From Acaryochloris marina S15 (GTDB taxonomy: Bacteria > Cyanobacteriota > Cyanobacteriia > Thermosynechococcales > Thermosynechococcaceae): a stretch of DNA of 32,000 nt. The number at the start of each line of letters is the position of its first letter. Within the stretch, counting starts at the first letter, position 1. The stretch covers positions 5,460,001 to 5,492,000 of the forward strand of contig NZ_CP064923.1 in NCBI RefSeq assembly GCF_018336915.1, written 5' to 3'. The notes below the pieces were generated by a model. It was not told the DNA's origin, made no database searches, and was given only the letters and a program-made list of their open reading frames with translations. A program made the translations under genes and the position numbers. Below are positions 7,684-26,097 of the stretch, piece after piece.

Positions 7684-8409
7684 ATGAACAAAATGAGTAG
7701 ACATCCATCTTCAACGATTGGCCTCGCCATTACCCTAGCAGGAGTCATGCAGACACTGCCCCTGCATGCAGCTCAGCTCAACTTTGACCAGCCAGAAACT
7801 GAGGGCAGTCTAACGACTCCTGAGGCCATTAGTAATTGTGCCCAAGAGCCGGATCCAAATTTAACGTCTCAGTCTAATCATGGGGTCTCTAATCCGTCCC
7901 AAACCCTCATCTTGGGACCGAATCTCATTGCTAATAATATTGCGACAGCGAATGATGCGGGTTTATTCACATCAGAGTCGCCCTTAGTTGCTCAATCCAT
8001 CGTAGATGATTGCTGTGTAGTTGGAGACACAGCCATTGGTGGCCCTTCTGCCTTTGAAGATGCTGCATTTTGCGGACTGGGTGGCGTACCTCCAGCAGGA
8101 GGCGCTGCACCTGGTGGCTTTCCTTTTCCTGTACTGGCCGCTTTAGCACCAGCAGCAGCAGTTCCCTTTATAGCAACGGGTGGAGATCCGGAACCGACTC
8201 CAACACCCACGCCGACTCCAACTCCAACTCCGACTCCAACACCCACGCCCACACCCACTCCAACACCCACGCCCACTCCAACACCCACTCCAACGCCGCC
8301 TCCTACCAAGCCTCCAGAGAAAGTACCTGAGCCTTCTACAATGGCTGGGTTACTCATTGGCGGTGCTATATTCGGCATCTATAAACGGAGAAAGAAATCA
8401 AAAGACTAG
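7684..8409 (+). CDS. PEP-CTERM sorting-domain exported protein with a (Thr-Pro)17 linker
   Basis: It has a signal peptide (IGLAITLAGVMQTLPLHAAQ). The C-terminal VPEPSTMAGLLIGGAIFGIYKRRKKSKD gives the PEP motif, a TM helix and a basic tail, which is the PEP-CTERM/exosortase sorting signal. A (TP)17 tract precedes it. Confidence 0.85.
   Translation: MNKMSRHPSSTIGLAITLAGVMQTLPLHAAQLNFDQPETEGSLTTPEAISNCAQEPDPNLTSQSNHGVSNPSQTLILGPNLIANNIATANDAGLFTSESPLVAQSIVDDCCVVGDTAIGGPSAFEDAAFCGLGGVPPAGGAAPGGFPFPVLAALAPAAAVPFIATGGDPEPTPTPTPTPTPTPTPTPTPTPTPTPTPTPTPTPTPPPTKPPEKVPEPSTMAGLLIGGAIFGIYKRRKKSKD
8197..8298 (+). repeat. In-frame hexanucleotide tandem repeat encoding (Thr-Pro)x17
   Basis: There are 17 consecutive ACN-CCN units with varied third positions. 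A higher-order 18-nt unit, actccaacacccacgccN, recurs at 8197, 8233 and 8257. The complementary strand reads (GV)n, which explains the spurious ORF at 7992..8378. Confidence 0.95.
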
Positions 8410-9933: not shown

Positions 9934-11061
9934 TTAGGCTTTAGGCATAACGAAATTAGCATAGCTTAGTTCGTTGACTGCATTCCACTTATAAACCTTT
10001 TCGCGAAAGGCTTTCCAAGGTTCATAGATCTCTTTAAAGCTCGCTTCTTTCGCCGCATTCTCCTCATAGATCTCAAAAGAGATTTTCTGGGCAGCTTGAA
10101 GGATATCGTCACTATAGCGGGTGAGTTCCGTGCCCCCCGCCACCAGCTGAGAGATCACGTCACGATTTAAGGCATCATAGGCGGCCAACATATTGATATT
10201 GGCTTCGTAGGCAGCGGTTTTGAAGATTTCTTGATATTCCTTAGGCAATTTATCCCAAGCTTGGCGATTGACTAGGACATCTAAGGTGGGGCCAGGCTCC
10301 CACCAGCCGGGATAGTAGTAGTATTTTGCTGCTTTTTGCAAGCCGAGTTTCTGATCGTCGTAAGGGCCCACCCATTCAGCGGCATCGATGGTGTTCCGCT
10401 CTAAAGCCAGGAAAATATCCCCCCCTGGTAAGACTTGGACATTTACCCCTAACCGCCGCATCACTTCGCCTCCAAGGCCAGGGATCCGCATTTTGAGTCC
10501 CTTCAGATCGCTAGCCGTTTTGATTTGGCGTTTGAACCAGCCTCCCATTTGGGCTCCGGTGTTACCCGCGGGGAAGTTGATCACACCAAAGTCTGCATAG
10601 ACTTTTTGCATGGCTTCCAGGCCACCGCCATGATAGAGCCAGGCATTTTGTTGCTGAGCGGTAAGACCAAAGGGAACGGCAGTGGCAAAGCCCAGGGCGG
10701 GGTTTTTGCCAATGTAGTAGTAGCTGGCGGTATGGCCGCATTGAACGCTACCGGAGCGGACGGTGTCTAAAACTTCTAAAGGTGGGGCAATTTCGCCACC
10801 GGGTGACACCTGAATTTGAAACCGACCATCGGTCATGGCACTGACGCGATCGCTAATGGTTTTGGCACCACCATAAATGGTGTCTAAGGATTCTTGCCAA
10901 CTGGTGGCCATCCGCCAACGAACTCGGGGAAGGGAACCTGAGCTAGTGGTGGAGGAGCGTCGACAGGCCGCAAGGGTGGTGGTTGCGATCGCACCGACTG
11001 CCGAATTCCGTAATAACTTGCGTCGTTTCAACTTTTCGCTCCTGAACCCTACGTGTATCAT
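9934..11061 (-). CDS. TRAP transporter solute-binding protein (DctP-type, COG4663-like) with a twin-arginine signal
   Basis: Family-typical sequence includes [68 protein letters not shown] and [14 protein letters not shown] place the start at the ATG at 11061 ([33 protein letters not shown], Tat-like RR motif). The ORF track's start at 11121 would add 20 unsupported residues. Confidence 0.85.
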
Positions 11062-11282
11062 CTCGGCAACGGTTATGCAGACGGACTTTAGGGTAATCCG
11101 TAGGGAGATGACCGCCTCCAATCCTACCGATAAATGGATTCGCTACCGGAAAACGCAACAGAATGTTGTCATTCCCGCCCAATTCCACTGATTTTTTAGG
11201 CAGAAGAGTAAATAAAGACTGTCGCTTCATTCCAGACGAAGGGCATTCTAGGGCCATAAATAGACCCATCTCTGTTAGTCAG

Positions 11283-13619
11283 ATGTCGAAAAGTCGACGA
11301 TACCGACCATTTTTACTCTTATTTGCGATTGGCATATTTCTAGGATTCTTAACTGCCACCCATCCTAGGCTGATCGCCAATCCTCACCTGTTCCATGCCC
11401 AAGCCTACTGGACTCCAACCGTCACTCAGACGGTGGATCAAACCTCTTTGGCGGGCACCTGGGAATTTCAAGCTGACCCACAGCCGACCGCTGACAAGCT
11501 AGTGCTGCAACCGAGTGGACCCAATATTCCACCTATTCCCCAGGGCCAATGGCAAGAGATTGCAGTGCCTTCCAACTGGTACTTACAAGGGCAAGATATA
11601 TCGGGGGTGGTCTGGTATCGCCATCAGTTTCGCGCCAATGAGCGATGGCGTCAGAAGCTGACTCGTCTAGTGTTTTCGGGGGTCGATTACACCGCAGACG
11701 TTTGGCTCAATGGTCAGTATTTAGGCTTTCATGAGGGCTACTTTCAGCCCTTTTCCTTTGATGTGTCTAAGGCTCTGATGTTTACGGGCCAGAATGAATT
11801 ACTGGTGCGGGTCAATAGCCCTTTGGAGCCTCAAGGCCAGGATTGGTCCCTCCGCAAACGCTTAATTAAAGGCATTTTTAGTCACCACGATACCCGTCCA
11901 GGTGGAGCTTGGACCGATCGCGGCCAAGAGAAAAATACCGGAGGTATCTGGGCCCCGGTATTTTTGCAAGTCTCCGATCAGGTCGCCATTGAAACGATTC
12001 AAATCACCCCGGAGTTAGACGCCGACTACCAACAGGCCACGGCTAAGGTGGATCTAGTAGTCAATTCTCCAGGACTGGGCAAGACGAATCTTGATGCCCA
12101 TGTGCAGTTGGTGCCAGAGAATTTTTCGGGGTTACCCATTGGACCTATTCGCGTGAAACGCACCCTGCATCAAGGGGCTAATCACCTGAAGCTACAGATT
12201 CCTGTAGATGACCCGAAACTATGGTGGTCTTGGGAGCATGGAGACCCCAATTTATATCGCCTTACGGTGCAGTTGGCCGATGGCAGTCGACTGCTGGATA
12301 AAGCGTCAGATGTATTCGGATTTCGCACCATTCAGTTTGACCCGACCGAAAAAATCTGGCGACTGAATGGTCGCCGCCTATTTTTGCGAGGCACCAATTA
12401 CATTGCCACCCAGTGGCTCAGTGAAATGACGCCGGAGAAATACCAGACGGATATTGACCTGATGAAAGCGGCCAATATCAATACGGTACGAGTCCATGCC
12501 CATATCATCGGCAAGGATTTTTATAAGCTGTGCGATCGCAACGGCGTATTCATCTGGCAGGACTTTCCTTTGCAGTGGGGCTATGAAGATACTCCCCAAT
12601 TTCTCCAGGAAGCTACCCGCCAAGCCAAGGATATGATTGGCTACCTTTACAACCATCCTTCGATTCTGGCCTGGAGTCTGCATAATGAGCCGCCCTGGGA
12701 TGCGGACTGGATGAAGTACAAATACAAGACCTACGATCCAGAGCAAAATCGCGAGTTAGACGCCAAGCTATTGGCCAACCTGCAGGGAGAAGACCCCACC
12801 CGCCTCTTACATCCCGTGTCTACCGTCGGGGAGCATCCTTGGTTTGGTTGGTATTCCAACACCTTCTATAAATATGCAGAACCGACCACAGAAGCCATTA
12901 TTTCCGAATTTGGCGCTCAAGCTTTACCGCATCTAGAGTCCCTACGGCGCATCTTTACGGAAGACGAGCTATGGCCGGATACAGAAGCGGAATGGGACAA
13001 GTGGCTGTATCACAACTTTCAGCGCCATGAAACTTTCAATATTGCCAAGGTGCCCATGGGGAATACGACCCAGGAGTTTATCGATAATACCCAACAGTAT
13101 CAATCCCAACTGATTCAGTTTGCCGCCGAAGCCTATCGCCGCCAGCGTTATCAGCCCGTCTCATCGATTTTTCAATTTATGTTTGTGGAGGATTGGCCTT
13201 CTGTCAATTGGGGCATTGTTGATTACTGGCGACAGCCCAAACCCGGCCATGAGGCTCTGAAATGGGCCTACCAGCCCGTATTGCCTAGTATTGCTTGGCC
13301 TCAACTCACCTGGACTTTGGAGGAAACCGTAGAGCTGGAACTCTGGGCCATCAATGATTTATGGAAGGACTATCCAGAGGCAACCTATACCTATACTCTC
13401 CGCCAAGGCCAAAAACGCCTTAAATCTGGCAAAAGTAGGATTAATTTAACCGCAGATAGCAGCCAGCCTGTCGATAAGATTTTTTTTCAGCCCCAAAACT
13501 TGGGCAACTACACCGTCACAGCCACGATCAAAGATCGGCTAGGGACGGTATTAGGGGAAAACCAGTTTACGTTTGATGTGATTGATCGGGGGGATCAAAC
13601 CAATGAGTCGACGTCGTAA
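11283..13619 (+). CDS. Glycoside hydrolase family 2 protein with an N-terminal membrane anchor
   Basis: The GH2 sugar-binding region is present (VFSGVDYTADVWLNGQYLGFHEGYFQPFSFDVS). So is the TIM-barrel region (FLRGTNYI, NINTVRVHAH, ILAWSLHNEPPW with the NE acid/base motif). The likely start is the ATG at 11283 (MSKSRRYRPFLLLFAIGIFLGFL signal/anchor) rather than 11163. Confidence 0.85.
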   Translation: MSKSRRYRPFLLLFAIGIFLGFLTATHPRLIANPHLFHAQAYWTPTVTQTVDQTSLAGTWEFQADPQPTADKLVLQPSGPNIPPIPQGQWQEIAVPSNWYLQGQDISGVVWYRHQFRANERWRQKLTRLVFSGVDYTADVWLNGQYLGFHEGYFQPFSFDVSKALMFTGQNELLVRVNSPLEPQGQDWSLRKRLIKGIFSHHDTRPGGAWTDRGQEKNTGGIWAPVFLQVSDQVAIETIQITPELDADYQQATAKVDLVVNSPGLGKTNLDAHVQLVPENFSGLPIGPIRVKRTLHQGANHLKLQIPVDDPKLWWSWEHGDPNLYRLTVQLADGSRLLDKASDVFGFRTIQFDPTEKIWRLNGRRLFLRGTNYIATQWLSEMTPEKYQTDIDLMKAANINTVRVHAHIIGKDFYKLCDRNGVFIWQDFPLQWGYEDTPQFLQEATRQAKDMIGYLYNHPSILAWSLHNEPPWDADWMKYKYKTYDPEQNRELDAKLLANLQGEDPTRLLHPVSTVGEHPWFGWYSNTFYKYAEPTTEAIISEFGAQALPHLESLRRIFTEDELWPDTEAEWDKWLYHNFQRHETFNIAKVPMGNTTQEFIDNTQQYQSQLIQFAAEAYRRQRYQPVSSIFQFMFVEDWPSVNWGIVDYWRQPKPGHEALKWAYQPVLPSIAWPQLTWTLEETVELELWAINDLWKDYPEATYTYTLRQGQKRLKSGKSRINLTADSSQPVDKIFFQPQNLGNYTVTATIKDRLGTVLGENQFTFDVIDRGDQTNESTS

Positions 13620-15736: not shown

Positions 15737-15891
15737 CAGGGGCTGTGAAGCGCCAATTCACCAAATGTTAAGCAGTAGGACATAATTAATTTCACAACAT
15801 TTTTGCTAAAACCCTGGCTTAGCAAGGAAATAGATTGTAATTACTTCTGCTTAAGTGCTTATCTTGAAGCATACTCGAACCCAAAAGTACT

Positions 15892-16497
15892 GTGAATACG
15901 CCTAGCCACGCGATTATCAACCTTGCCCTGCTCATGAATGTGACGGAGCAGCCAGCAGTGTTGGCCGTGACGGCGGGAGCCATTGCCCCGGATCTCCCCA
16001 TGTTTGTGTTTTATTTCTGGGTGAAGGGGATTCGGAAGTTACCAGAAGGCCAAATCTGGACGGAAGCTTACTATCATCCCTTTTGGCAAACCTGCATCGA
16101 TCTATGCCATTCCATTCCATTGGCGGGGCTAGCGGCTTGGGGCTGCTGGCAACTGGGCTGGATGCCTGCGGCCCTATTTTTTCTCAGCATGATTCTCCAC
16201 TCTTTAGGCGATTTGCCCGTTCATAATGACGATGCCCATAAGCATTTTCTACCGCTGAGTCAATATCGACTAATTAGTCCCCTGTCATATTGGGACCCGA
16301 AGCATTACGGTCGGCAAGTGGCGTTTGTAGAGATGCTGCTGGTGTTGGGGACTTCGGTATTGACGTTTCCAATCTTGGGTAATATTTGGGGCCAAGGGTT
16401 GGTGGTGTTGGTGAATGGGTTTTACTGGTTTACCTTTGGCTATACGTTTTTGCGGAGACAGCTTCCTAATTTGTTGTGTCGGGCGCGGAATGCTTGA
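15892..16497 (+). CDS. Integral-membrane, His-rich metal-dependent-hydrolase-like protein (YdjM/DUF4184-like; family uncertain)
   Basis: It has a GTG start, 5-6 hydrophobic spans and His motifs (TPSHAI, LCHSIP, ILHSLGDLPVHNDDAHKH). The family assignment is from pattern memory only. Confidence 0.5.
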   Translation: MNTPSHAIINLALLMNVTEQPAVLAVTAGAIAPDLPMFVFYFWVKGIRKLPEGQIWTEAYYHPFWQTCIDLCHSIPLAGLAAWGCWQLGWMPAALFFLSMILHSLGDLPVHNDDAHKHFLPLSQYRLISPLSYWDPKHYGRQVAFVEMLLVLGTSVLTFPILGNIWGQGLVVLVNGFYWFTFGYTFLRRQLPNLLCRARNA

Positions 16498-16500
16498 AGG

Positions 16501-18861
16501 TTAGGTTTCGTCGAAGGATAGGTTGGCGAAATGTTCTTGCAGGTAGCGATGGACGAAGACATAGCTGCCGCCTGTGCGATAGATAAATACGCAATCTTCG
16601 GCTTGTTGGAAAAAAGTGACGAAATTCCAAGGGATTTGCTTAGTTTGGCAGAGGACTAAACGCATTGACAAGTGTTGAGTACAGGGGTCTATTCCTTCGT
16701 TGTTGAGGATTAAAAAGAGTGGTAACACCATGAATAAGGCAATAATGAATCTCACTACAAATGGTTCTAGGAACAGAGGTAAAATATTTACCAGAGTAAA
16801 ACAAAGAACAATCATAAAAACAAGCGACACGATAACCTGTATCACTATCGTTTTTAAAGATCCCCAAATAACTTGATTAGGAAAAGTTCGATCTAGAATA
16901 TCGACTTTTAGCCCTCCAATCAGCTTGATACTTAGCCCTCCAATCAGCTTGATACTCTCCCCGAGAATCAATCCGAAAATTAGCCCGAGAATCAGGCCTC
17001 CAATCAGCCCGTAACTCTGCATGAAAAGCCCCCCGAAACTCAGCGCGTATGTCAGATAGCTTTCAAGGAGCTTCCAACTTCTTCGTCCCGTTTTGCGAGG
17101 CATTGGATTTTCTATAGCTTTTACTGAATACATCTTATCTCGCCTAACACTCAGCCCGAAAATCAATCCGATTAGCCCGAAAATTAGCCCAGAAATTAGT
17201 CCTCCAATTAGCCCAAAAACCCTTCCAATTAGCCCGAAAATTAGCCCGAGAATTAGCCCCCAAGCCAGCCCATAAAGCAGCCTATAAAGCCATTTAGTCC
17301 TTTCAGCTTCTACTAGATCCATCCCAACATACAGCCCTCCATACAGCCCCATTAGCCCTCCAAATAGCCCTCCGACAATACCTCCAAATAGCTCTCCGAC
17401 AATACCTCCAAATAGCCCGCAAATCAATCCGAAAATCAATCCGAAGATTAGCCCAAGAATCAGCCCAAAAAGCCATTTAGTCCTTGCTGTCTCCAGCCAA
17501 TCTTTGGGTTTCATTCGTTCGATCAAGAACTCTTTCCCCGCTCCCGTTTTCTTCGCTATTCCTTGCAGCCAGTGCAACATTTGTTGCTGTTCCGGCTCAG
17601 GTAAAGACCGCTGGGCAAACATTCGCTCAATATAACGATCAAACAGGAGTTTTAAGCGTTGGTCTTTAGGCAAATCCAGTAATTCCTGAGCTGGACGATT
17701 GCGATAGGCCAAAGTCAGAATCCATAGAAAAAGCGGCTTATTCACTAAGTCCCGTAAGGAGGGATCTGCCCCTAAAGCAGTTGCAATCCCTACTAACGCT
17801 TCCCCTCCCTCTTGTAAGTAATCATCTACCTGCTTTTCTGACAAAGGTTGAATATACACTGCTGCCTGAAACTCTTCTAAACGAGTGATCAAGGCTTGAT
17901 AGTCTACAATTCGGCAACACAGTGCGATTTCGATATTGCCAAACTTTTGCCGAAACTGATTCAATGCTTCCACACAAGCATCGCGATCTTGGGGTTTGAC
18001 TTCATCCAAACCATCCAGCAGCAAGGTCCATTTTTCCTGCTCCAGCCAAGTTTTTCCCACTTCTTTGCGAACTTGATATTGCTGCCATAACTCCTCCAGC
18101 AGCCACTGGGTAAAGGCCAGCGTTCCATCGTTAGGGAACTGCTGAGTGCCCCAAGCTGACAAATTCAACACAATCGGGATAGGCTGTTTTAGCTCTTGAA
18201 AATCAGTCGCTTCTAATAAATCTTGAGCCAGCTCCAAAAGCAAGGTTGTTTTCCCGGCACCCGGCTCCCCCAGCACCAACAACGTTCCGCCACCCCCCAA
18301 ATTAGCAAATCGATCCAACAGCCGCGTGCCAGGGGGCAACACCTGTTTCTCTTCTCCCGCCCTTTGCCACTCCATCCCCACCATCTCAGGCCGCTCTTCC
18401 AATCCCACTGCAATCCGAGCCTGCTCATACAGAGAGTTTTTCAAAACCCCATCAATCCATTTCACCCCCACCTTATCCATCAAGATTTGACGATTGTCTT
18501 GCCACCGGGCTTCATCCAATTCAGATGCTGTCAATATCGAGGGCTTGCGGACAAGCTGCACCACATCCACCACCATCATGCCCAGTAGCCCCACCAGCAC
18601 AACGCTATACAGCAAGCCAATCACTTTGGCAGTTGGGTTATCACTGCTAAAAGCAGCCATTGCCTCTGGAAAGACTCTGCCAATAAACCCCAACACGGCG
18701 GTTTCAACCACCAGCTTCAGCCATCGTCCCCATTTGGCTTTTTTCTGGTCAGCCGCAACTTGCCCCACCACCCAGCCCAACACCACCGGAATCAATACCG
18801 TGAACAGAGGCACCACAACCGTCTGAAAATTCGGATCACTCAGCAGTTTTTGAAGCATCAT
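16501..18861 (-). CDS. Membrane-embedded NACHT-family STAND NTPase with a C-terminal glycine-zipper transmembrane array
   Basis: Three N-terminal hydrophobic spans precede the NACHT core, which has Walker A LLVLGEPGAGKTTLLLELA and Walker B WTLLLDGLDEV. Then comes roughly 290 aa of GLIxGL/GGxxG hydrophobic repeats. The protein ends with FIYRTGGSYVFVHRYLQEHFA, a motif typical of the helical module after a NACHT core. I could not recognise any WD40, TPR or LRR repeats. Confidence 0.85.
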   Translation of the reverse strand: MMLQKLLSDPNFQTVVVPLFTVLIPVVLGWVVGQVAADQKKAKWGRWLKLVVETAVLGFIGRVFPEAMAAFSSDNPTAKVIGLLYSVVLVGLLGMMVVDVVQLVRKPSILTASELDEARWQDNRQILMDKVGVKWIDGVLKNSLYEQARIAVGLEERPEMVGMEWQRAGEEKQVLPPGTRLLDRFANLGGGGTLLVLGEPGAGKTTLLLELAQDLLEATDFQELKQPIPIVLNLSAWGTQQFPNDGTLAFTQWLLEELWQQYQVRKEVGKTWLEQEKWTLLLDGLDEVKPQDRDACVEALNQFRQKFGNIEIALCCRIVDYQALITRLEEFQAAVYIQPLSEKQVDDYLQEGGEALVGIATALGADPSLRDLVNKPLFLWILTLAYRNRPAQELLDLPKDQRLKLLFDRYIERMFAQRSLPEPEQQQMLHWLQGIAKKTGAGKEFLIERMKPKDWLETARTKWLFGLILGLIFGLIFGLICGLFGGIVGELFGGIVGGLFGGLMGLYGGLYVGMDLVEAERTKWLYRLLYGLAWGLILGLIFGLIGRVFGLIGGLISGLIFGLIGLIFGLSVRRDKMYSVKAIENPMPRKTGRRSWKLLESYLTYALSFGGLFMQSYGLIGGLILGLIFGLILGESIKLIGGLSIKLIGGLKVDILDRTFPNQVIWGSLKTIVIQVIVSLVFMIVLCFTLVNILPLFLEPFVVRFIIALFMVLPLFLILNNEGIDPCTQHLSMRLVLCQTKQIPWNFVTFFQQAEDCVFIYRTGGSYVFVHRYLQEHFANLSFDET
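16909..16956 (-). repeat. Perfect in-frame 24-nt tandem duplication inside the NACHT gene
   Basis: tagccctccaatcagcttgatact occurs twice back to back (16909-16932 and 16933-16956) with 24/24 identity. It encodes SIKLIGGL-SIKLIGGL. Confidence 0.95.
17155..17262 (-). repeat. Degenerate 12/9-nt periodic repeat encoding GLIF/GLI glycine-zipper units
   Basis: The plus strand reads agcccgaaaatc aatccgatt agcccgaaaatt agcccagaaatt agtcctccaatt agcccaaaaacc cttccaatt agcccgaaaatt agcccgagaatt. A 17-nt match, aaagccatttagtcctt, at 17286-17302 and 17469-17485 is 183 nt apart. That marks a duplicated 61-codon module beginning (E)RTKWL. Confidence 0.9.
17370..17417 (-). repeat. Second in-frame 24-nt tandem duplication (23/24 identical) inside the NACHT gene
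   Basis: ctccgacaatacctccaaatagcT (17370-17393) is followed by ctccgacaatacctccaaatagcC (17394-17417). Together they encode the GGIVGELF/GGIVGGLF units. Confidence 0.93.
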
Positions 18862-19192
18862 CGATATTTAAGAGAATAAGCAGCTTTAATCGAATATAAA
18901 CGAGAATAAAAGCAAAATCTATATAAAATATCCTTTCCAGCAAGAATTTTGCCGATTTACTCTCATTAAGATAAAGATCGATCTAAGTGCACGATCTTAT
19001 GCCCCATCAAACGTCTGGCCAACATTACCCTTGCCCCCTCCCCAGTACTCCAGATTTACCAACCAAGGTGAGTAGGCCCAAGATACGGGAACCCTAAATA
19101 TAAAGCGATGTAACGTTGGAACTTTTTATTGGTCAGCCAACCTGTTTCGCTCAGGTTCTACCCCATAATTTCCGACTCTATCCCCATCTCGC
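18862..19192. promoter_or_regulatory. Shared divergent promoter region between the NACHT gene and the first kinase/FGE gene
   Basis: This 331-bp AT-rich, ORF-free spacer is flanked by two outward-facing start codons (18861 minus, 19193 plus). No specific operator could be established. Confidence 0.55.
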
Positions 19193-21097
19193 ATGCTCCA
19201 TTGTCTGAACCCCACTTGCAGCAATCCTCAAAACCCAGACGGGCGTGACACCTGTCAACAATGCGGACAGCCCCTGATCGGCATATTGCGCAATCGATAT
19301 CGCATCATCAAACCACTGGGACAAGGTGGATTCGGCATCACTTATCTGGCCGAAGATATCGAGAGATTTAACGAGACTTGCGTGGTTAAACAATTAGCCT
19401 ATCAAAACCCTGATAGCCTCGCATCGCAGCAAAAAGTCCAAGACCTCTTTACCCAAGAAGCCCAACAGCTCTTTCAGCTCGGCACCCATCCACAAATCCC
19501 CAACCTGCTAGCCTACTTTCATGAAACAGGGCATCAATATTTAGTACAAGAATTTATCGAAGGTCCCAATCTTCTGCAAGAGCTGAAAAGCAACGGGGTA
19601 TATAGTGAATCCAAGCTGAGACACTTTCTCCGTAGCATCTTGCCCGTTCTAGACTATATCCATACCCAAGGCGTCATTCATCGCGATCTCAAACCCCACA
19701 ACATCATGTATCGCCCCGCCGATGATCGCTATTTCATCATCGACTTTGGCGTCACCAAGCAAGTCAATACTCAAGACCTCACAGGCACTGTATTAGGCAG
19801 CGAAGGATACGCCGCCTTCGAACAACTCCAATATGGTCAGGCCCATCCCGCGAGTGATTTATATAGTTTGGGGGTGAGCTGTTTTCACTTCTTGACAGGC
19901 CATGATCCAAGATCACTCCAGCTTCAGGTCGGGTATTCATGGACCCAAAACTGGCAGCAACATCTCCCAAAGCCCCTCAGCCCTGAGCTCACCTCAGTTC
20001 TTGACACCCTGCTCCAACTGCAACTAGAGAATCGCTATACCTCTGTTGCAGCAGTGCTCAAAGATTTAGCCCTCACCCAAACTTCTCCCCCCAAAAATCA
20101 AGTCGTGGCTCACAGCCAGCCACCTGCCCATCCACAACCCAAGCTTGAGTTAGCTCCAACCACTGACCGGACCGCCGTTATCTGGGAACCAACGAGCGAT
20201 ATCTCGACTTCATCCGCCTCTGCTGCGTTACACCCACCCTTACAAACCACACAGTTTGAAGTAGTAACCCTCGATGTAAGGGGGCAAACTCATTTGGTTC
20301 AGACCCTTACCGCCCAACAATATCTCGAAGAACTAGGAGACGGCATTTCCCTCTCGATGCTCGTTATCCCGGCCAGAAGTTTCTTCATGGGTTCATCGTC
20401 AACTGAAGTATCAAGACGCAAATTTGAAGGACCTCAACATCAAGTCTCAGTTGCCTCCTTCTACATGGGCCAATTCCTGATCACTCAAGCTCAATGGCAA
20501 GCCATAGCGGCTCTTCCCACCATCAACCATGACCTCTCCCCAGATCCATCGCAGTTCAAAGGAGCCGATCATCCAGTTGAGAGTATTTCCTGGCTAGATG
20601 CTGTCGAATGTTGTGACCGACTCACCCGCAAATTCAATCGACTCTATCGTCTACCCAGTGAAGCAGAGTGGGAATATGCTTGCCGAGCCAACACCACCAC
20701 CCCCTTCCACTGTGGCGAGACCCTCATCTCTGATCATGCTAATTTTCATGGCATGAAAACCTATCGATCCGCCCCTAGAGGTCAGTATCGCAACCAAACC
20801 ACTCCTGTAGGCAGTTTTCAAGCCAATGCTTTTGGCCTCCACGACATGCATGGCAATGTCTGGGAATGGTGCGCCGATGATTGGCATGCCAACTATCAAG
20901 GGGCTCCCATAGATGGCAGCATTTGGTTCACCCCAAACAACGATGCCATCGCAGGCAAGGCTCCCCATCCTTGGAGAGGTGGGTCTTGGTATGATGCCCC
21001 CGACAGCTGTCGGGCTGCCTATCGAACCTTTGCGGATGCCGACTTTAAGAGCAGTAATTTAGGCTTTCGAGTGGTCTCTCCAGTTCTATCCCCCTAA
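19193..21097 (+). CDS. Soluble Ser/Thr protein kinase with an N-terminal 4-Cys zinc ribbon and a C-terminal FGE-sulfatase (SUMF1-like) domain
   Basis: The zinc ribbon is CLNPTCSNPQNPDGRDTCQQCG. Hanks kinase motifs are intact: GQGGFG, VVKQL, HRDLKPHN (codons 163-170) and DFG (codons 184-186). A Pro-rich linker leads to the FGE-sulfatase fold (VIPARSFFMGS, HPVESISW, PSEAEWEYACR, HDMHGNVWEWC, RGGSW, SNLGFRVV). No TM segment is present. Confidence 0.9.
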   Translation: MLHCLNPTCSNPQNPDGRDTCQQCGQPLIGILRNRYRIIKPLGQGGFGITYLAEDIERFNETCVVKQLAYQNPDSLASQQKVQDLFTQEAQQLFQLGTHPQIPNLLAYFHETGHQYLVQEFIEGPNLLQELKSNGVYSESKLRHFLRSILPVLDYIHTQGVIHRDLKPHNIMYRPADDRYFIIDFGVTKQVNTQDLTGTVLGSEGYAAFEQLQYGQAHPASDLYSLGVSCFHFLTGHDPRSLQLQVGYSWTQNWQQHLPKPLSPELTSVLDTLLQLQLENRYTSVAAVLKDLALTQTSPPKNQVVAHSQPPAHPQPKLELAPTTDRTAVIWEPTSDISTSSASAALHPPLQTTQFEVVTLDVRGQTHLVQTLTAQQYLEELGDGISLSMLVIPARSFFMGSSSTEVSRRKFEGPQHQVSVASFYMGQFLITQAQWQAIAALPTINHDLSPDPSQFKGADHPVESISWLDAVECCDRLTRKFNRLYRLPSEAEWEYACRANTTTPFHCGETLISDHANFHGMKTYRSAPRGQYRNQTTPVGSFQANAFGLHDMHGNVWEWCADDWHANYQGAPIDGSIWFTPNNDAIAGKAPHPWRGGSWYDAPDSCRAAYRTFADADFKSSNLGFRVVSPVLSP

Positions 21098-21400: not shown

Positions 21401-23278
21401 ATGGTTTGTTGTCTCAATCCCAAGTGTGAGAAACCCCTCAACCCAGACACCAGTAAGTTTTGTCAACAGTGTGGTACAAAACTAACCCTGTTACGGCGAC
21501 GGTTTAAGATGGTTCGTCTGTTGGGTAAAGGTATGTTTGGCCATACGTATCTTGCAGAAGATCGAGATAATTTGCAGGAGCCCTGCATTGTCAAACAGCT
21601 AATTTGTCAAGCCCAGGGAACGGATGCCAGCCAGACGGTTGTTGAACCATTTTTACAAGAGGCAGAACAACTCAGACGGCTGAAAAAAAACCAACATATT
21701 CCCAGCATTTTAGCTTACTTCGAAGAAAATTATATTCCCTATTTAGTCCAGGAATATATCGACGGCCAAGACTTGCAACAAGTCATTGAGAATCAGGGTG
21801 CCTTCAGCGAGAATCAAGTCCGGGCCTTGTTACTAGAGCTCTTGCCGGTCTTACAGACGATCCATGATCAAGGGGTGATTCATCGGGACTTGAAACCCGC
21901 TCACATCATGCGTCAGCATTCAGATAGCAAGCTGATTCTGGTGGGGTTTTGTGTCTCCAAGCAACTCAGTTTATCTCAGTTACAGCAAACCGATAGCGTT
22001 CGAGAGAATACCAGCTACGCACCACCAGAAGTCTTTGCCGTCGATAAAGCTCGTCCCGGCAGCGATCTCTATAGCCTAGGTGCCACCTGCGTCCATTTAT
22101 TAACGGGAGTTGCTCCCCATGCTTTACCCATCCAAGGTGGAGAAGTATGGGTCGAACACTGGCAACAGCATCTTCCCCAGCCCTTGAGTGCTGAATTAAA
22201 GCCTGTGCTGGAGAAGTTACTCCGCACAGACCTAGCGGAGCGATATACTTCCGCCTTAGAAGTGCTCAGAGAAGTGCGCGGTTTTGCCAAAGCAACCTCC
22301 CGCCCCCTGCCCAAAATACCCGCCGTTCGAGCAGCCCAGACCTCTGGTCAGACAGCCCCACAAGCAGTCAGATCTCAGCCCAAGGCCCCGGCCCAGCCCA
22401 CCAAACTGCAGCCTAAACCCAAATCTTCCATCCCTTCCTTCCAAGCGGAAGTCGCCCAGGTCGATACCAAAGGCCAAGTGGTGAGTCGCCAATTTCATCC
22501 GATTGGCCACATCACCGAGGATCTCGGTAAGGATGTCACCCTGGAGTTGGCGCAGATTCCGGCAGGCCGCTTTTCCATGGGCTCGCCCCCTAGCGAGCAG
22601 CATCGGCAGCAGACCGAAAGTCCCCAGCATATTGTGTCTATCCCAGAATTTTATTTAAGTCGCTATCCCATCACTCAGGTCCAATGGCGTTTGGTGGCCG
22701 CCTTACCCGCAGTCAAGCGCGAACTGGATGATTCTCCGTCTCACTTTACGGGCGATGATCGCCCTGTCGAAAGCGTCTCTTGGTTTGATGTGGTCGAATT
22801 CTGTAACCGACTCTCCTTGTTAACTGGGAAGGACTATCACCTCCCTAGTGAATCTGCTTGGGAATATTCCTGCCGCGCCGCTAGTAACACCCCCTTTGCC
22901 TTTGGCGAAACCCTCAACACAGAACTGGCCAACTATGATGGCACAGCAGCCTATGGAGCTGGACCGACAGGCAATTTTCGCCAGCAAACCACCCGAGTGG
23001 GCAAATTCCCGGCCAATCCCTATGGGTTATCCGATATGCATGGCAATGTCTGGGAATGGTGTGCAGACCATTGGCATGGCAACTATGGCAATGCCCCAGT
23101 AGACGGCAGCGTCTGGCAAGATCAATACTTCTTTGCCTGTGTACTGAGGGGAGGGGCCTGGAATACCCAAGCCGCGAGCTGTCGTTCCGCCTCTCGCATT
23201 TGGGAAGCGGCCTCTGAACAAAGCAATCATATTGGGTTTCGGGTTGCTTGTACCTTAGTGAAACCAGCCAGCTCATAA
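21401..23278 (+). CDS. Paralogous zinc-ribbon / kinase-like / FGE-sulfatase protein; kinase domain predicted catalytically degenerate
   Basis: It has the same architecture as the upstream gene: CLNPKCEKPLNPDTSKFCQQCG, GKGMFG, IVKQL, and an FGE fold with IPAGRFSMGS, RPVESVSW, PSESAWEYSCR, SDMHGNVWEWC, RGGAW and NHIGFRVA. However, the catalytic loop reads HRDLKPAH, so Asn is replaced by His at codon 168. The DFG motif reads GFC at codons 182-184. Confidence 0.88.
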   Translation: MVCCLNPKCEKPLNPDTSKFCQQCGTKLTLLRRRFKMVRLLGKGMFGHTYLAEDRDNLQEPCIVKQLICQAQGTDASQTVVEPFLQEAEQLRRLKKNQHIPSILAYFEENYIPYLVQEYIDGQDLQQVIENQGAFSENQVRALLLELLPVLQTIHDQGVIHRDLKPAHIMRQHSDSKLILVGFCVSKQLSLSQLQQTDSVRENTSYAPPEVFAVDKARPGSDLYSLGATCVHLLTGVAPHALPIQGGEVWVEHWQQHLPQPLSAELKPVLEKLLRTDLAERYTSALEVLREVRGFAKATSRPLPKIPAVRAAQTSGQTAPQAVRSQPKAPAQPTKLQPKPKSSIPSFQAEVAQVDTKGQVVSRQFHPIGHITEDLGKDVTLELAQIPAGRFSMGSPPSEQHRQQTESPQHIVSIPEFYLSRYPITQVQWRLVAALPAVKRELDDSPSHFTGDDRPVESVSWFDVVEFCNRLSLLTGKDYHLPSESAWEYSCRAASNTPFAFGETLNTELANYDGTAAYGAGPTGNFRQQTTRVGKFPANPYGLSDMHGNVWEWCADHWHGNYGNAPVDGSVWQDQYFFACVLRGGAWNTQAASCRSASRIWEAASEQSNHIGFRVACTLVKPASS

Positions 23279-23355: not shown

Positions 23356-26097
23356 ATGGAAGTTCTCTCCGTTACGCTGAAAAACTTTAAGGCCCATCGC
23401 GATCGCTACTATGAATTCCGACCGGGGGCCAATGCCATTTGTGGTGAAAATGGGTCAGGGAAGACCAGCATCCTAGAAGCCATTGCCTGGGTTTTATTTG
23501 ATCACAGCGAGTACAAGCGAGCCGAACTAATCACCGTCGGGGCCAAAAGTGCCCAAGCCATCGTCAGCTTTATATCCCACTTGGATGGGCGAATCTACGA
23601 GGTGCGTCGCTGTACTAGTCGGGGCTATGAGGTTCACGACCCCCAGCTCAACCGCAAGCTAGAACTGAAAAAACTCGATGATGTCCGCTGCTGGCTCTGT
23701 GAACATTTGGGGGTGGGGGTCCACACGGAACTGGCCAAATTGTTTGCAGAAACCATTGGCATTCCCCAGGGCACCTTTACAGTGGATTTTCTCAAATCAG
23801 CGGGCGATCGCAAAAAGGTATTCGATCCCATTCTGAAGGTGGAAGAGTATAAACAGGCTTACGATCAGGCCCAAAAATTAACCAGTTATGCCCAGGCCCA
23901 GGTCCAACAGCTAGAGCAAAAATTACAAAGCTACGACCAGCAACTCGAAGGCTGGGAAGCGCTTAAGCAACAGAAGCTAGAGCTAGCTAAAACCTTGACT
24001 CAGCAGATGGCCCAGATGCAAACCCTGGCTCAGCAGTTGGGTGAGATTCGGACTGAACTCAAGGATTTAAAGACCCAAGACCAAGCCATCCAAACCCTAG
24101 ACAAACAGGTCCAGCATCTCCAAACCCAATGGACCAGTAAACAGGAAATTCTCCAGCTCTTAGAGGAGAATTGGCAGCAGGCAGACCAAGCCGTCCAGAT
24201 TTGTCGTCAGCATCGGCCTCAATTTCAGGCCTATCAAGCGGCCCAAGAGACCCTCAAGGCCCTCGCTCAACAACAAAAACAACGACAGCAACTGCTGCAA
24301 GAACGCGATCGCATCCAAAATACCCTCCGCGATCAGCAAGTCCTACTCTCCCAAAACCAAGGCCAACTCTCCACCTTTGCCAAGATGGACGCAGAACTCC
24401 AGGACTGGCAAACCAAAGTTCCGCAACAACAGCAGCTCGACCAAGAAAAGACCACTTGCCAACAGGCCCTCCAAACCCTAGTCTCCGACCAAAAACACCT
24501 ACAGCGACTGCAAGAGCAAATCCACAAACAGCAGCAGAGTTGGGAAACCCTCAGCCAGACCATTCGCCAACTGGTCGCCCTAGAACCACAAGTTCAGGCC
24601 ATTCCTAACTTCGAAGCCCAGCAGCAGAAGATTCAAGAACGGCTGGGACGAATTGCCGCCGCCCAGCAATTTGCCACAGAATTACAGACATTACTGACCG
24701 AGGCTGAACCCCAACAACAGCACTATCAGCAGCAAGTAGACACAGCGAAAGATCTGCTCAGTCGTTCCACCCTGAACCCAGCCCAGACCACTCAACTCGC
24801 CACCATTTTGGACCAAGGGGCTGCCCTCACCCACCAGATTATTCAGCAGCTCCAAACAGCTTTTGCCGACATTATTGATCCCCAGACCGTCACCAACCTC
24901 AAGCAACAGCTTCGGCAGATAAAAACCCAACTCAAAGCCGCCCAAAAAGCCCAAACCCAATGGTTGATGCTAGAGGCCCAACAGCATCAGCTAACGGAGC
25001 TAGAGCAAGGGATGACGTCACTGCAGCAAGAGTGCGATCGCATCCAGGTCACCCTCAACCAAGAGCCCCAGCTCCAGAGCCAACTAGCACAGCTCAATAC
25101 CCAGCTAACGGCACTCAGCGACCCCCAGGGCCATGTCCGCATCTTGCAGCAGCAGCTTCAAGGAGCCACCCAGCTAGAAGCAGAGATCACTCGCCTTCAA
25201 CAGGCCTGTCAAGGTCATCAGCAGTCCCTCACAACCTTTGAAACCCAGGTCGAAGCCTTGGGAGATCTAGAAGCCCAAGTCGATGCCCAACAGCAGATCC
25301 AGCAAGAGCATCAGGAGGTGTATCAGCGCTATTTACGCCATCGGAATCAGGCCAATACCTTTAAAGACCTAGATCAGCAACGCCAAGGTGCGATCGCTAC
25401 CCAAACCCAACTCCAAACCCAGTTAACGGGTGCTCAAGCCCAATGGCAGGAAAAGCTCAAAGATCATAATCCTGAGCGGCTAGCTGAAGTGAGTCACACC
25501 TATGAACAATTGCAGCGACACCATGACCAGCTCCAGGGGGGACTAGCCCCCCAACAGGCTCAGCTGCAATATCTCGATCAGCAATTGGAAGCCAAGCAAG
25601 CCCTCGCCCAAGAGCGCGATCAGATCTGGGTGACCTTAGAGGATAAGCGCCAAATCTCACAGTTCGTTATCGATGCTCGCAACGTCTACAAGCAAAGCGG
25701 TCCTCGAATCACCAAATTTTACCTGACAGAAATTTCTTGGGAGGCGGATCGGCTCTATCGGGAGCTGCTCGATCGGCCTGATGTGGCTTTACAGTGGACT
25801 GAAGATTACGAAATTCAGGTACAAGAGCAGGGCCATTGGCGTAGCTTCAAAAGCCTGTCGGGGGGAGAGCAGATGTGTGCTGCTTTAGCCGTGCGCCTAG
25901 CCTTGCTGAAAGTCTTAGTCGATATCAATATTGCGTTTTTCGACGAGCCCACAACGAACATGGATGAACTGCGTCGTCGACAGTTGGCCGAAGCCTTGGG
26001 GCATCTCAAATCCTTCCATCAGCTGTTTGTGATCAGTCATGACGACACTTTTGAGAGCGTTACAGAAAATATTATTCGGGTAGAGAGAGCGAGTTAA
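23356..26097 (+). CDS. Rad50/SbcC-like SMC-family ABC ATPase with a very long Gln-rich coiled coil
   Basis: The N-terminal head is LKNFKAHRD...ICGENGSGKTSILEAI (Walker A), followed by about 600 aa of Q-rich heptad-like sequence. The C-terminal head has SLSGGEQMCAALAVRLAL (signature), IAFFDEPTTNMD (Walker B/D-loop) and FVISHDD (H-loop). There is no CxxC in the coiled-coil region and no nuclease gene next to it. Confidence 0.85.
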   Translation: MEVLSVTLKNFKAHRDRYYEFRPGANAICGENGSGKTSILEAIAWVLFDHSEYKRAELITVGAKSAQAIVSFISHLDGRIYEVRRCTSRGYEVHDPQLNRKLELKKLDDVRCWLCEHLGVGVHTELAKLFAETIGIPQGTFTVDFLKSAGDRKKVFDPILKVEEYKQAYDQAQKLTSYAQAQVQQLEQKLQSYDQQLEGWEALKQQKLELAKTLTQQMAQMQTLAQQLGEIRTELKDLKTQDQAIQTLDKQVQHLQTQWTSKQEILQLLEENWQQADQAVQICRQHRPQFQAYQAAQETLKALAQQQKQRQQLLQERDRIQNTLRDQQVLLSQNQGQLSTFAKMDAELQDWQTKVPQQQQLDQEKTTCQQALQTLVSDQKHLQRLQEQIHKQQQSWETLSQTIRQLVALEPQVQAIPNFEAQQQKIQERLGRIAAAQQFATELQTLLTEAEPQQQHYQQQVDTAKDLLSRSTLNPAQTTQLATILDQGAALTHQIIQQLQTAFADIIDPQTVTNLKQQLRQIKTQLKAAQKAQTQWLMLEAQQHQLTELEQGMTSLQQECDRIQVTLNQEPQLQSQLAQLNTQLTALSDPQGHVRILQQQLQGATQLEAEITRLQQACQGHQQSLTTFETQVEALGDLEAQVDAQQQIQQEHQEVYQRYLRHRNQANTFKDLDQQRQGAIATQTQLQTQLTGAQAQWQEKLKDHNPERLAEVSHTYEQLQRHHDQLQGGLAPQQAQLQYLDQQLEAKQALAQERDQIWVTLEDKRQISQFVIDARNVYKQSGPRITKFYLTEISWEADRLYRELLDRPDVALQWTEDYEIQVQEQGHWRSFKSLSGGEQMCAALAVRLALLKVLVDINIAFFDEPTTNMDELRRRQLAEALGHLKSFHQLFVISHDDTFESVTENIIRVERAS

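Follow-up and report, generated by a model that had tools for sequence, protein, structure and literature searches.

Within a 32,000-nucleotide (nt) stretch of Acaryochloris marina S15 (NCBI RefSeq assembly GCF_018336915.1, contig NZ_CP064923.1, positions 5,460,001 to 5,492,000 of the forward strand; the whole of it is here termed the window), the gene for a NACHT-domain NTPase contains a 12-nt-periodic, in-frame array that evolves by unit gain and loss and by concerted evolution between two conserved anchors (FLIE… and …PNQ). This array is the sole part of the protein with substantial length variation among ten syntenic orthologs from Acaryochloris. We favor, with moderate confidence, the reading that two 24-nt tandem duplications are the youngest visible events in this hierarchical array, which would belong to a membrane-embedded, NLR-like STAND NTPase, be reshaped by slippage or unequal recombination, and serve as its sensor or anchor. 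The gene and the tandem tracts at issue are the following:

16501 to 18861, minus strand: complete gene for the NACHT-domain NTPase with membrane segments, 786 residues (from the list of open reading frames (ORFs), the Pfam NACHT match and a cluster look-up)
16908 to 16956, minus strand: perfect 2 x 24-nt tandem coding for SIKLIGGL twice, residues 636-651 (Tandem Repeats Finder, repeat search, translation)
17357 to 17418, minus strand: 24-nt tandem of 2.6 copies with 94% match, in the center of array module 1 (Tandem Repeats Finder, repeat search, translation)
17417 to 17448, minus strand: perfect 12-nt tandem of 2.6 copies coding for IFGL IFGL I (Tandem Repeats Finder)

A sequence-only reading of this DNA had reported the two 24-nt duplications as in-frame units, and both are recovered by Tandem Repeats Finder and by a separate repeat search. 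The first has a period of 24, 2.0 copies and a 100% match over 16908-16956, with the same copies in the repeat search, and the minus-strand translation of 16909-16956 is SIKLIGGLSIKLIGGL, the doubled SIKLIGGL that had been described. It is located at the Lys-bearing C-terminal end of module 3, adjoining the conserved KVDI motif. For the second, the peptides GGIVGELF and GGIVGGLF and the 23/24 identity between the copies hold, but the interval given for them, 17370-17417, is 8 nt off. That interval is out of frame and translates to GYLEVLSE twice, the correct coding interval being 17362-17409; the identity is the same in either phase. The sole mismatch between its copies is non-synonymous (GAG for Glu490 versus GGG for Gly498), and the duplication occupies the center of module 1, the putative turn holding Glu490. 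The IFGL tandem, which directly adjoins it, was absent from the earlier reading, and overlapping periodicities of 12, 24 and 57 nt run over 16917-17445. The longest exact run at an offset of 24 in the window is 25 nt; in 200 first-order Markov simulations, the longest run averages 7.4 nt and never exceeds 10. When the array's own 12-nt units are shuffled, a run of at least 24 is seen in just 0.1% of 5000 trials. Two ORFs overlapping the array, at 17093-17275 on the plus strand (SPKISPEISPPISP…, SPKISP...) and at 17303-17476 in another frame of the minus strand (WRAIWRYCRRAIWRYCRR…, WRAIWRYCRR...), were rejected as repeat-generated artefacts and not genes.

The array as a whole corresponds to residues 460-651 and is made up of three modules, each opening with the motif R-[TR]-[KS]-W:

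17302 to 17484, minus strand: array module 1, residues 460-520, RTKW...MDLVEAE (pairwise alignment, repeat search)
17086 to 17301, minus strand: array module 2 with a hydrophilic linker, residues 521-592, equivalent to module A of the other orthologs (pairwise alignment)
16909 to 17085, minus strand: array module 3, residues 593-651, equivalent to module B of the other orthologs and stopping just before KVDI (pairwise alignment)

Its basic 12-nt unit, GGN-CTN-ATT-NNN, codes for Gly-Leu-Ile-x, that is, a single GxxxG period, and above it lie the larger layers of 24/36-nt duplications and of module duplications of about 183 nt. Module 1 and the beginning of module 2 are paralogs (90 nt, 72% identical, spaced by 183 nt). 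The uncharged segments come in pairs of 27 and 24, 19 and 25, and 14 and 19 residues in modules 1, 2 and 3, respectively, each pair being split by one charged residue in the first two modules and by a single Gln in the third. A Gly at every fourth residue of long hydrophobic helices is shared with the transmembrane (TM) glycine zippers (GxxxGxxxG), where it favors close packing of helices within membranes. The likeness is one of pattern, from which comparable packing would follow only by inference, and the Acaryochloris arrays differ from such zippers in their much greater length (three modules of up to about 50 residues each) and their genetic instability. None of the Pfam glycine-zipper families (Gly-zipper_Omp, Gly-zipper_OmpA and Gly-zipper_YMGG) is among the matches of the protein at E<=1.

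The ten syntenic loci comprise the window and nine further ones (L002-L010); a contig scan of genomes gave only A. marina MBIC11017 (L003, NC_009925.1), and the other orthologs were obtained via exact-protein look-ups. All ten show two genes for Zn-ribbon/kinase/FGE-sulfatase proteins upstream and the genes for a 179-201-residue protein, a GH9 and a GH2 enzyme downstream; a DUF167 gene downstream is called in six loci and is aligned in L003. The N-terminal part up to FLIE has 441-445 residues in the nine intact genes, differing by at most 4 residues, and the part after PNQ has 122-123 residues in all ten loci. Between these nearly fixed parts, the anchor-to-anchor span of the array is 216, 156, 208, 157, 197, 117, 56, 157, 157 and 209 residues (window first), an approximately fourfold range in which the window is the longest, L007 the shortest at 56 and L006 intermediate at 117. 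All ten spans are 0 or 1 modulo 4, which is what changes made mostly in single 12-nt steps would produce. Length variation from strain to strain, as predicted, is thereby borne out. The closest ortholog, L002, whose flanks and N-terminal part are 98% identical to those of the window at the nucleotide level, lacks the whole of module 1 (183 nt), the second duplication included; its sequence at the site of the first duplication differs, being longer by 12 nt and carrying a GGGCTGATTAAC tandem of its own in two copies. Neither of the two window duplications is present in any of the other nine orthologs, so that the identical two-copy state in all relatives, which would have spoken for an old and fixed feature, is not what these loci display. 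Instead, the eight orthologs with arrays of the GLIx type each have their own perfect or near-perfect 12-, 24- or 36-nt tandems, with L006 carrying a perfect 36-nt unit in three copies. The degenerate arrays of L009 and L010, which are generic hydrophobic sequence, have no such tandems. In MBIC11017, the NACHT ortholog (approximately 10001-12303) is a pseudogene with a frameshift near codon 35 and an in-frame stop (…VRLE*RPKMVG…); its remaining ORF of 622 residues (10435-12303) still contains an array of 208 residues with perfect 12/24-nt tandems.

The synonymous codons point to a homogenization within each array. The Leu codon of the Gly-Leu units is CTA in 14 of 26 units in the window, CTG in 14 of 19 in L002 and CTA in 12 of 13 in L006, and the Gly codon is GGT or GGC in 19 of the 20 units of L004 and GGG in others. 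Across the eight GLIx-type arrays, units are on average nearer to units of their own array than to those of other arrays, and in seven of the eight the units of the same array are nearer than, or tied with, those of the most similar other array. Read from the sequences, this pattern has the signature of repeated local duplication and loss and indicates concerted evolution by slippage or unequal recombination.

Beyond these orthologs, the full-length protein has more than 2000 relatives, mostly cyanobacterial. For its C-terminal 132 residues (655-786), matches at E<=1e-3 extend to at least 3769 clusters at 50% identity; among the full-length proteins listed, the matching region is at or near the C-terminus. 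The array together with this C-terminal module also occurs in homologs behind N-terminal kinase, caspase, TIR, adenylate cyclase, receiver, trypsin and CHAT domains, and the GxxxG pattern is retained across thousands of distant members. In a set of 77 members from the wider family, array length has a sharp mode of about 157 residues (20 of the 77 fall at 156-159), and the window array ranks 74th. Exact 4-residue tandems are found in 37 of these members and exact 8-residue tandems in seven. Array length modulo 4 is uniform across this set, and the 12-nt step signal is visible among close orthologs only. Net expansion in the lineage of the window is plausible, since its array is the longest of the ten orthologs and near the top of the family. 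The earlier proposal of an actively expanding array nevertheless captures just one side of a turnover that includes contraction, as in L007 and L006, and at the first duplication site the gain cannot be polarized, the closest ortholog lacking a simple one-copy state. Likewise, the two duplications do appear to be the youngest visible events, but 24 identical nt make a weak clock from which to call the first very recent: even at the 2% divergence of the closest strains, only about 0.5 substitutions are expected per 24 nt.

The remainder of the protein frames the array as follows:

18532 to 18861, minus strand: N-terminal membrane-helix domain, residues 1-110 (AlphaFold2 (AF2) helices, hydrophobic sequence, variable N-terminal domains in homologs)
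17809 to 18285, minus strand: NACHT P-loop NTPase core, residues 193-351 (Pfam, invariant alignment columns, Foldseek)
17494 to 17667, minus strand: helical and first winged-helix part, closing with KEFLIERMxPxDWL, the N-terminal anchor of the array (alignment, AF2)
16696 to 16908, minus strand: C-terminal anchor KVDIxDRTFPNQ followed by two further hydrophobic helices (length fixed, sequence fast-evolving)
16504 to 16695, minus strand: C-terminal tail, residues 723-786, with IPWN and GGxYxFxHRxLxEHFA (alignment, ratio of non-synonymous to synonymous substitution rates (dN/dS), AF2)

The protein is identical to QUY42382.1/WP_212663551.1 of A. marina in the cluster look-up. Pfam NACHT (PF05729) matches residues 193-351 with 40.8 bits against a cut-off of 26.7, and weak P-loop-level matches to NACHT defense proteins are seen with NCBIfam and PADLOC. 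In an alignment of 82 sequences, which also served for the AF2 model, the Walker A motif GEPGAGKT and the Walker B motif LLLDGLDE are invariant (columns G198, G201, G203, K204, T205 and D283-E287). The model (pLDDT 83.3, pTM 0.73) has helices at residues 10-35, 41-71 and 76-104 of the N-terminal domain, a candidate effector or anchor that occupies the same position as the enzymatic effector domains of homologs. Its best PDB matches by Foldseek are NOD2 (5irm, E 5.8e-8), NLRC4 (4kxf) and NAIP5, with 345-416 aligned columns and E-values of 6e-8 to 4e-7 for the NOD2 and NLRC4 matches, so that the NBD-HD1-WHD arrangement resembles that of solved NLRs. Eight uncharged hydrophobic segments of 14-28 residues, all predicted to be helical, occupy residues 463-720 and are followed by the conserved soluble tail. 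In the latter, GGSYVFVHRYLQEHFA is strongly conserved alongside IPWN, and YVFVHRYLQEHFA is almost invariant (H771, R772, E776, F778 and A779) within an AF2 element of the form helix-helix-β-hairpin-helix. In solved NLRs, a winged-helix His contacts the bound nucleotide within the motif F-x-H-x-x-x-Q/E-E-[FY], to which the His771 motif of the tail may correspond. We infer that the tail is the second half of the NACHT winged-helix domain, and therefore that the whole hydrophobic block would be an insertion in that domain. With multiple predicted TM regions C-terminal to, or inside, the NACHT module, the window protein fits the description of the TM-type bacterial NACHT (bNACHT) proteins, which are predicted to sense intramembrane or periplasmic signals (“TM regions” class, class 4; Kibby et al., bioRxiv 10.1101/2022.07.19.500537). 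Cyanobacteria are given as the richest phylum (Kibby et al., bioRxiv 10.1101/2022.07.19.500537).

On the favored reading, the number of units would change when near-identical 12-nt units slip during replication or recombine unequally, and each event, by adding or removing a multiple of 4 residues, would leave the frame intact and the Gly residues of the helix in register. As 12 nt make up one GxxxG period, frame and Gly stripe would be kept together, which would explain why such changes are tolerated. The hydrophobic block, namely the array and the two further helices, would interrupt the winged-helix domain shortly before the conserved His motif; most likely, it would act for the switch as a sensor or anchor embedded in the membrane. 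Output would fall to the N-terminal domain (membrane helices here; kinase, caspase, TIR or cyclase domains in homologs). Each array module is probably a helical hairpin whose entry into and exit from the bilayer lie on one side; hence, modules could be lengthened, added (as in the window), lost or fused (as in L007) without disturbing the winged-helix halves or the topology.

Several observations weigh against parts of this reading. AF2 models modules 1 and 2 as single helices of 52-54 residues and not as hairpins. L007 has only one uncharged segment of 18 residues and module B of L006 is down to 12 residues, so that some ortholog segments are too short to span a bilayer, which weakens a uniform topology. 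Both a profile of the spliced alignment (13 members, with the hydrophobic block removed) against PDB sequences and the 13 spliced members against Pfam (E<=10) recovered only the P-loop/NACHT core, present in all 13, with no match to a winged-helix family or to an NLR winged-helix domain. The proposed winged-helix insertion leans on secondary structure, motif conservation and one remark in the literature. A one-copy ancestor of the first duplication is found in no ortholog, and allelic recombination, rather than local slippage, could be the source of the difference at that site. The flanking genes of L006 and L008 are 96-97% identical to those of the window and the N-terminal part of the NACHT gene just 80-82%, which points to the whole gene as an allelic or mosaic hot spot, with synonymous divergence unequal between gene segments pointing to a recombination mosaic. 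As for ongoing slippage, the only other copy of the window allele, a Logan short-read contig (L001), has the identical sequence. Finally, no functional test of any member of the array-bearing NACHT family was found in the literature.

What selection makes of the array can be read in two ways: the variability is either adaptive, as a diversification of the sensor, or it reflects weak constraint on a hydrophobic spacer. The strongest competitor to the favored reading takes the second option and regards the repeats as a mutational by-product in a dispensable, partly decaying gene, in which any GLIx-rich length would work. It concerns selection only and leaves the DNA mechanism undisputed. In comparisons of the window with other alleles, the winged-helix tail has a dN/dS of about 0.05, the N-terminal part one of 0.14-0.41 and the helix pair after the array one of 0.8-1.3. 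This value of about 1 next to the array, the pseudogene in MBIC11017, the decay of the L009 and L010 arrays to generic hydrophobic sequence and the extreme tolerance of length all agree with a by-product. The hot-spot divergence and the pseudogene agree as well with weak constraint as with diversifying or balancing selection at a locus of immune type, and the near-neutral ratio together with the pseudogene fits relaxed constraint no less than diversifying selection. However, the frame has stayed intact in nine of the ten orthologs despite a tract prone to slippage, array length in the wider family has its sharp mode, and the GxxxG pattern has been conserved among its distant members. We regard the by-product account as possible but less probable than the favored reading.

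It is rather unlikely that the array is itself the effector, as the sequence-only reading had implied by speaking of an effector region. In such a scenario, the glycine-zipper helices would form a pore or a membrane-disrupting bundle upon NACHT oligomerization, with expansion tuning the length or stoichiometry of the pore. NLR resistosomes can form membrane pores, GxxxGxxxG zippers are, as Kim et al. are said to have described in PNAS in 2005, found in channel and pore formers, and the window protein and its Acaryochloris orthologs have membrane helices only and no enzymatic domain. Yet, the array and the C-terminal module are retained in homologs that already possess N-terminal kinase, caspase, TIR, cyclase or receiver domains, and the array lies inside the NACHT module and not at a terminus. 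A range of 56-216 residues, with module B down to a dozen, is hard to square with a defined pore, and the Pfam glycine-zipper families give no match. Given the effector-NOD-sensor logic of STAND proteins and the variable N-terminal domains, the hydrophobic insert would fall on the sensing or regulatory side, which makes the effector role doubtful; Kibby et al. also class such TM regions as sensing domains.

A more ambitious version of the sensor idea, which we consider distinctly improbable though worth stating, would make the GxxxG array the intramembrane counterpart of the hypervariable NLR repeat sensors. Through a surface for helix packing, such an array would recognize foreign membrane proteins, such as phage holins or injection proteins, or bilayer damage, and have its specificity re-tuned by repeat turnover at a polymorphic immune locus in conserved synteny. 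Given an insertion of the array in the winged-helix domain, the nucleotide switch could receive the signal directly.

That the variation comes from dedicated machinery (for example, a diversity-generating retroelement or a cassette-switching recombinase) and not from passive slippage is very improbable. This could be entertained on account of the neighboring genes with FGE-sulfatase domains, a fold that is often targeted by diversity-generating retroelements in multicellular bacteria (PMC10907252). We rejected such a source of the variation, as no reverse transcriptase or recombinase is found among the scanned window ORFs of at least 150 residues and no template-like second copy of the array is present in the gene region; further, the variation consists of changes in unit number and local tandems and not of adenine-specific substitutions. 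The least credible alternative, that the duplications are assembly or sequencing artefacts, draws on the error-proneness of low-complexity periodic sequence in long-read assemblies and can be set aside because the short-read Logan contig (SRR12447961) is 100% identical across 15834-19798 of the window (3965 nt), tracts of 49 and 62 nt lie below the read length, and comparable private tandems occur in eight other assemblies. That contig is probably from the same strain as the window, and hence not an independent sample. The 90% cluster of the window protein likewise consists of the Logan copy and the NCBI protein alone, which agree in sequence and differ in the start codon; it contains no near-identical variants. 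In JGI metagenomes, a gapped exact pattern for the one-copy and two-copy states of the first duplication gave 0 matches.

Among known systems, NLR-like STAND proteins are central to animal, plant, fungal and bacterial immunity, and their LRR, WD40 and TPR sensors are the classic sites of rapid diversification. In fungal NLRs, the high-internal-conservation (HIC) repeats show gain, loss and shuffling of units, length polymorphism among strains and concerted evolution, which have been attributed to unequal crossing-over (PMC13449251). The Acaryochloris array shares with the WD40, ANK and TPR repeats of this kind (HET-E/D, NWD family) a high identity of adjacent units (in eight of ten orthologs), polymorphism in repeat number and concerted evolution. 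In contrast to these soluble units of 33-42 residues, which lie C-terminal to the NOD and have demonstrated roles in the specificity of allorecognition, the array has a hydrophobic unit of 4 residues (12 nt), is apparently membrane-embedded, lies inside the NACHT module and has an unproven role in specificity. Pfam gives no WD40, ANK or TPR match in the window protein, and we regard the array, by comparison, as an analog of the HIC repeats and not a member. The in-frame tandem repeats of the streptococcal alpha C and M proteins also vary in copy number by slippage or recombination, giving size variants without frameshift; those are extracellular antigens under host immune selection, whereas the Acaryochloris repeat would be a membrane segment of a cytoplasmic switch ATPase. 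Because its units are multiples of 3 nt, phase (on/off) variation is not possible in the array.

The TM type of bacterial NACHT and repeat instability in the sensors of fungal NLRs are hence known already. For the repeat dynamic of the array, the literature searches yielded no earlier account of a GxxxG membrane array in bacterial NLR-like proteins that is hypervariable and evolves in concert. The passages found of Kaur et al. 2020 do not describe the array; Kibby et al. describe the TM regions in a single sentence, and no account of their GxxxG repeats, 12-nt periodicity, strain length polymorphism or concerted evolution was found. The locus suggests that the mode of repeat diversification known from NLRs, with unstable, homogenized tandems that differ even among nearly identical strains, can act on a membrane-embedded repeat with the shortest possible unit, one GxxxG period, and in a large family. 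If the array sets the specificity of the trigger, it would offer a tractable system for intramembrane recognition and for signaling from the membrane to the NACHT switch; if not, it would be a natural example of helix length in a membrane protein varying without loss of frame. For annotation, length differences in array-bearing NACHT genes should be treated as real alleles and not as assembly errors. We know of no member of the “TM regions” class of bNACHT proteins that has been tested for phage defense.

The neighboring genes are also of interest in the context of defense. Divergent from the NACHT gene, on the plus strand, are tandem paralogs at 19193-21097 and 21401-23278, which code for proteins combining a Zn-ribbon, a Ser/Thr kinase and an FGE-sulfatase domain. 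Their N-terminal 300 residues match the PADLOC PD-T4-6 models at 1e-98 and 1e-91, and they are in synteny with the NACHT gene in all ten strains. FGE-sulfatase domains have been described as antigen-receptor-type sensors in bacterial conflict systems. Further on, 23356-26097 (plus strand) codes for a 913-residue SMC/RecF-like ATPase (SMC_N, AAA_15, AAA_23 and an SbcC Walker B), with PADLOC matches to LmuB of Lamassu (1.5e-30) and to mad3 (2.7e-28). Together, the genes for the ATPase, the kinases and the NACHT protein may constitute a small defense island.

On the other side, 15892-16497 (plus strand) codes for a hydrophobic protein of 201 residues that is convergent with the NACHT gene, with 3 nt between the stop codons, and has no match in Pfam or PADLOC. 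It is present in all ten strains with 179-201 residues and 90-95% nucleotide identity. Between this gene and the DUF167 gene, L002 lacks about 91 nt (window 15771-15861), the strains being otherwise 98% identical. Farther away, an ORF of 241 residues at 7684-8409 (plus strand) with no Pfam match contains a (Pro-Thr)n stretch of approximately 17 dipeptides at 8193-8294, which is a tandem array with periods of 6, 12 and 18 nt. Its end has a PEP-CTERM-like motif (VPEPS followed by a hydrophobic helix and KRRKK), by which the product is probably a secreted, exosortase-sorted protein.

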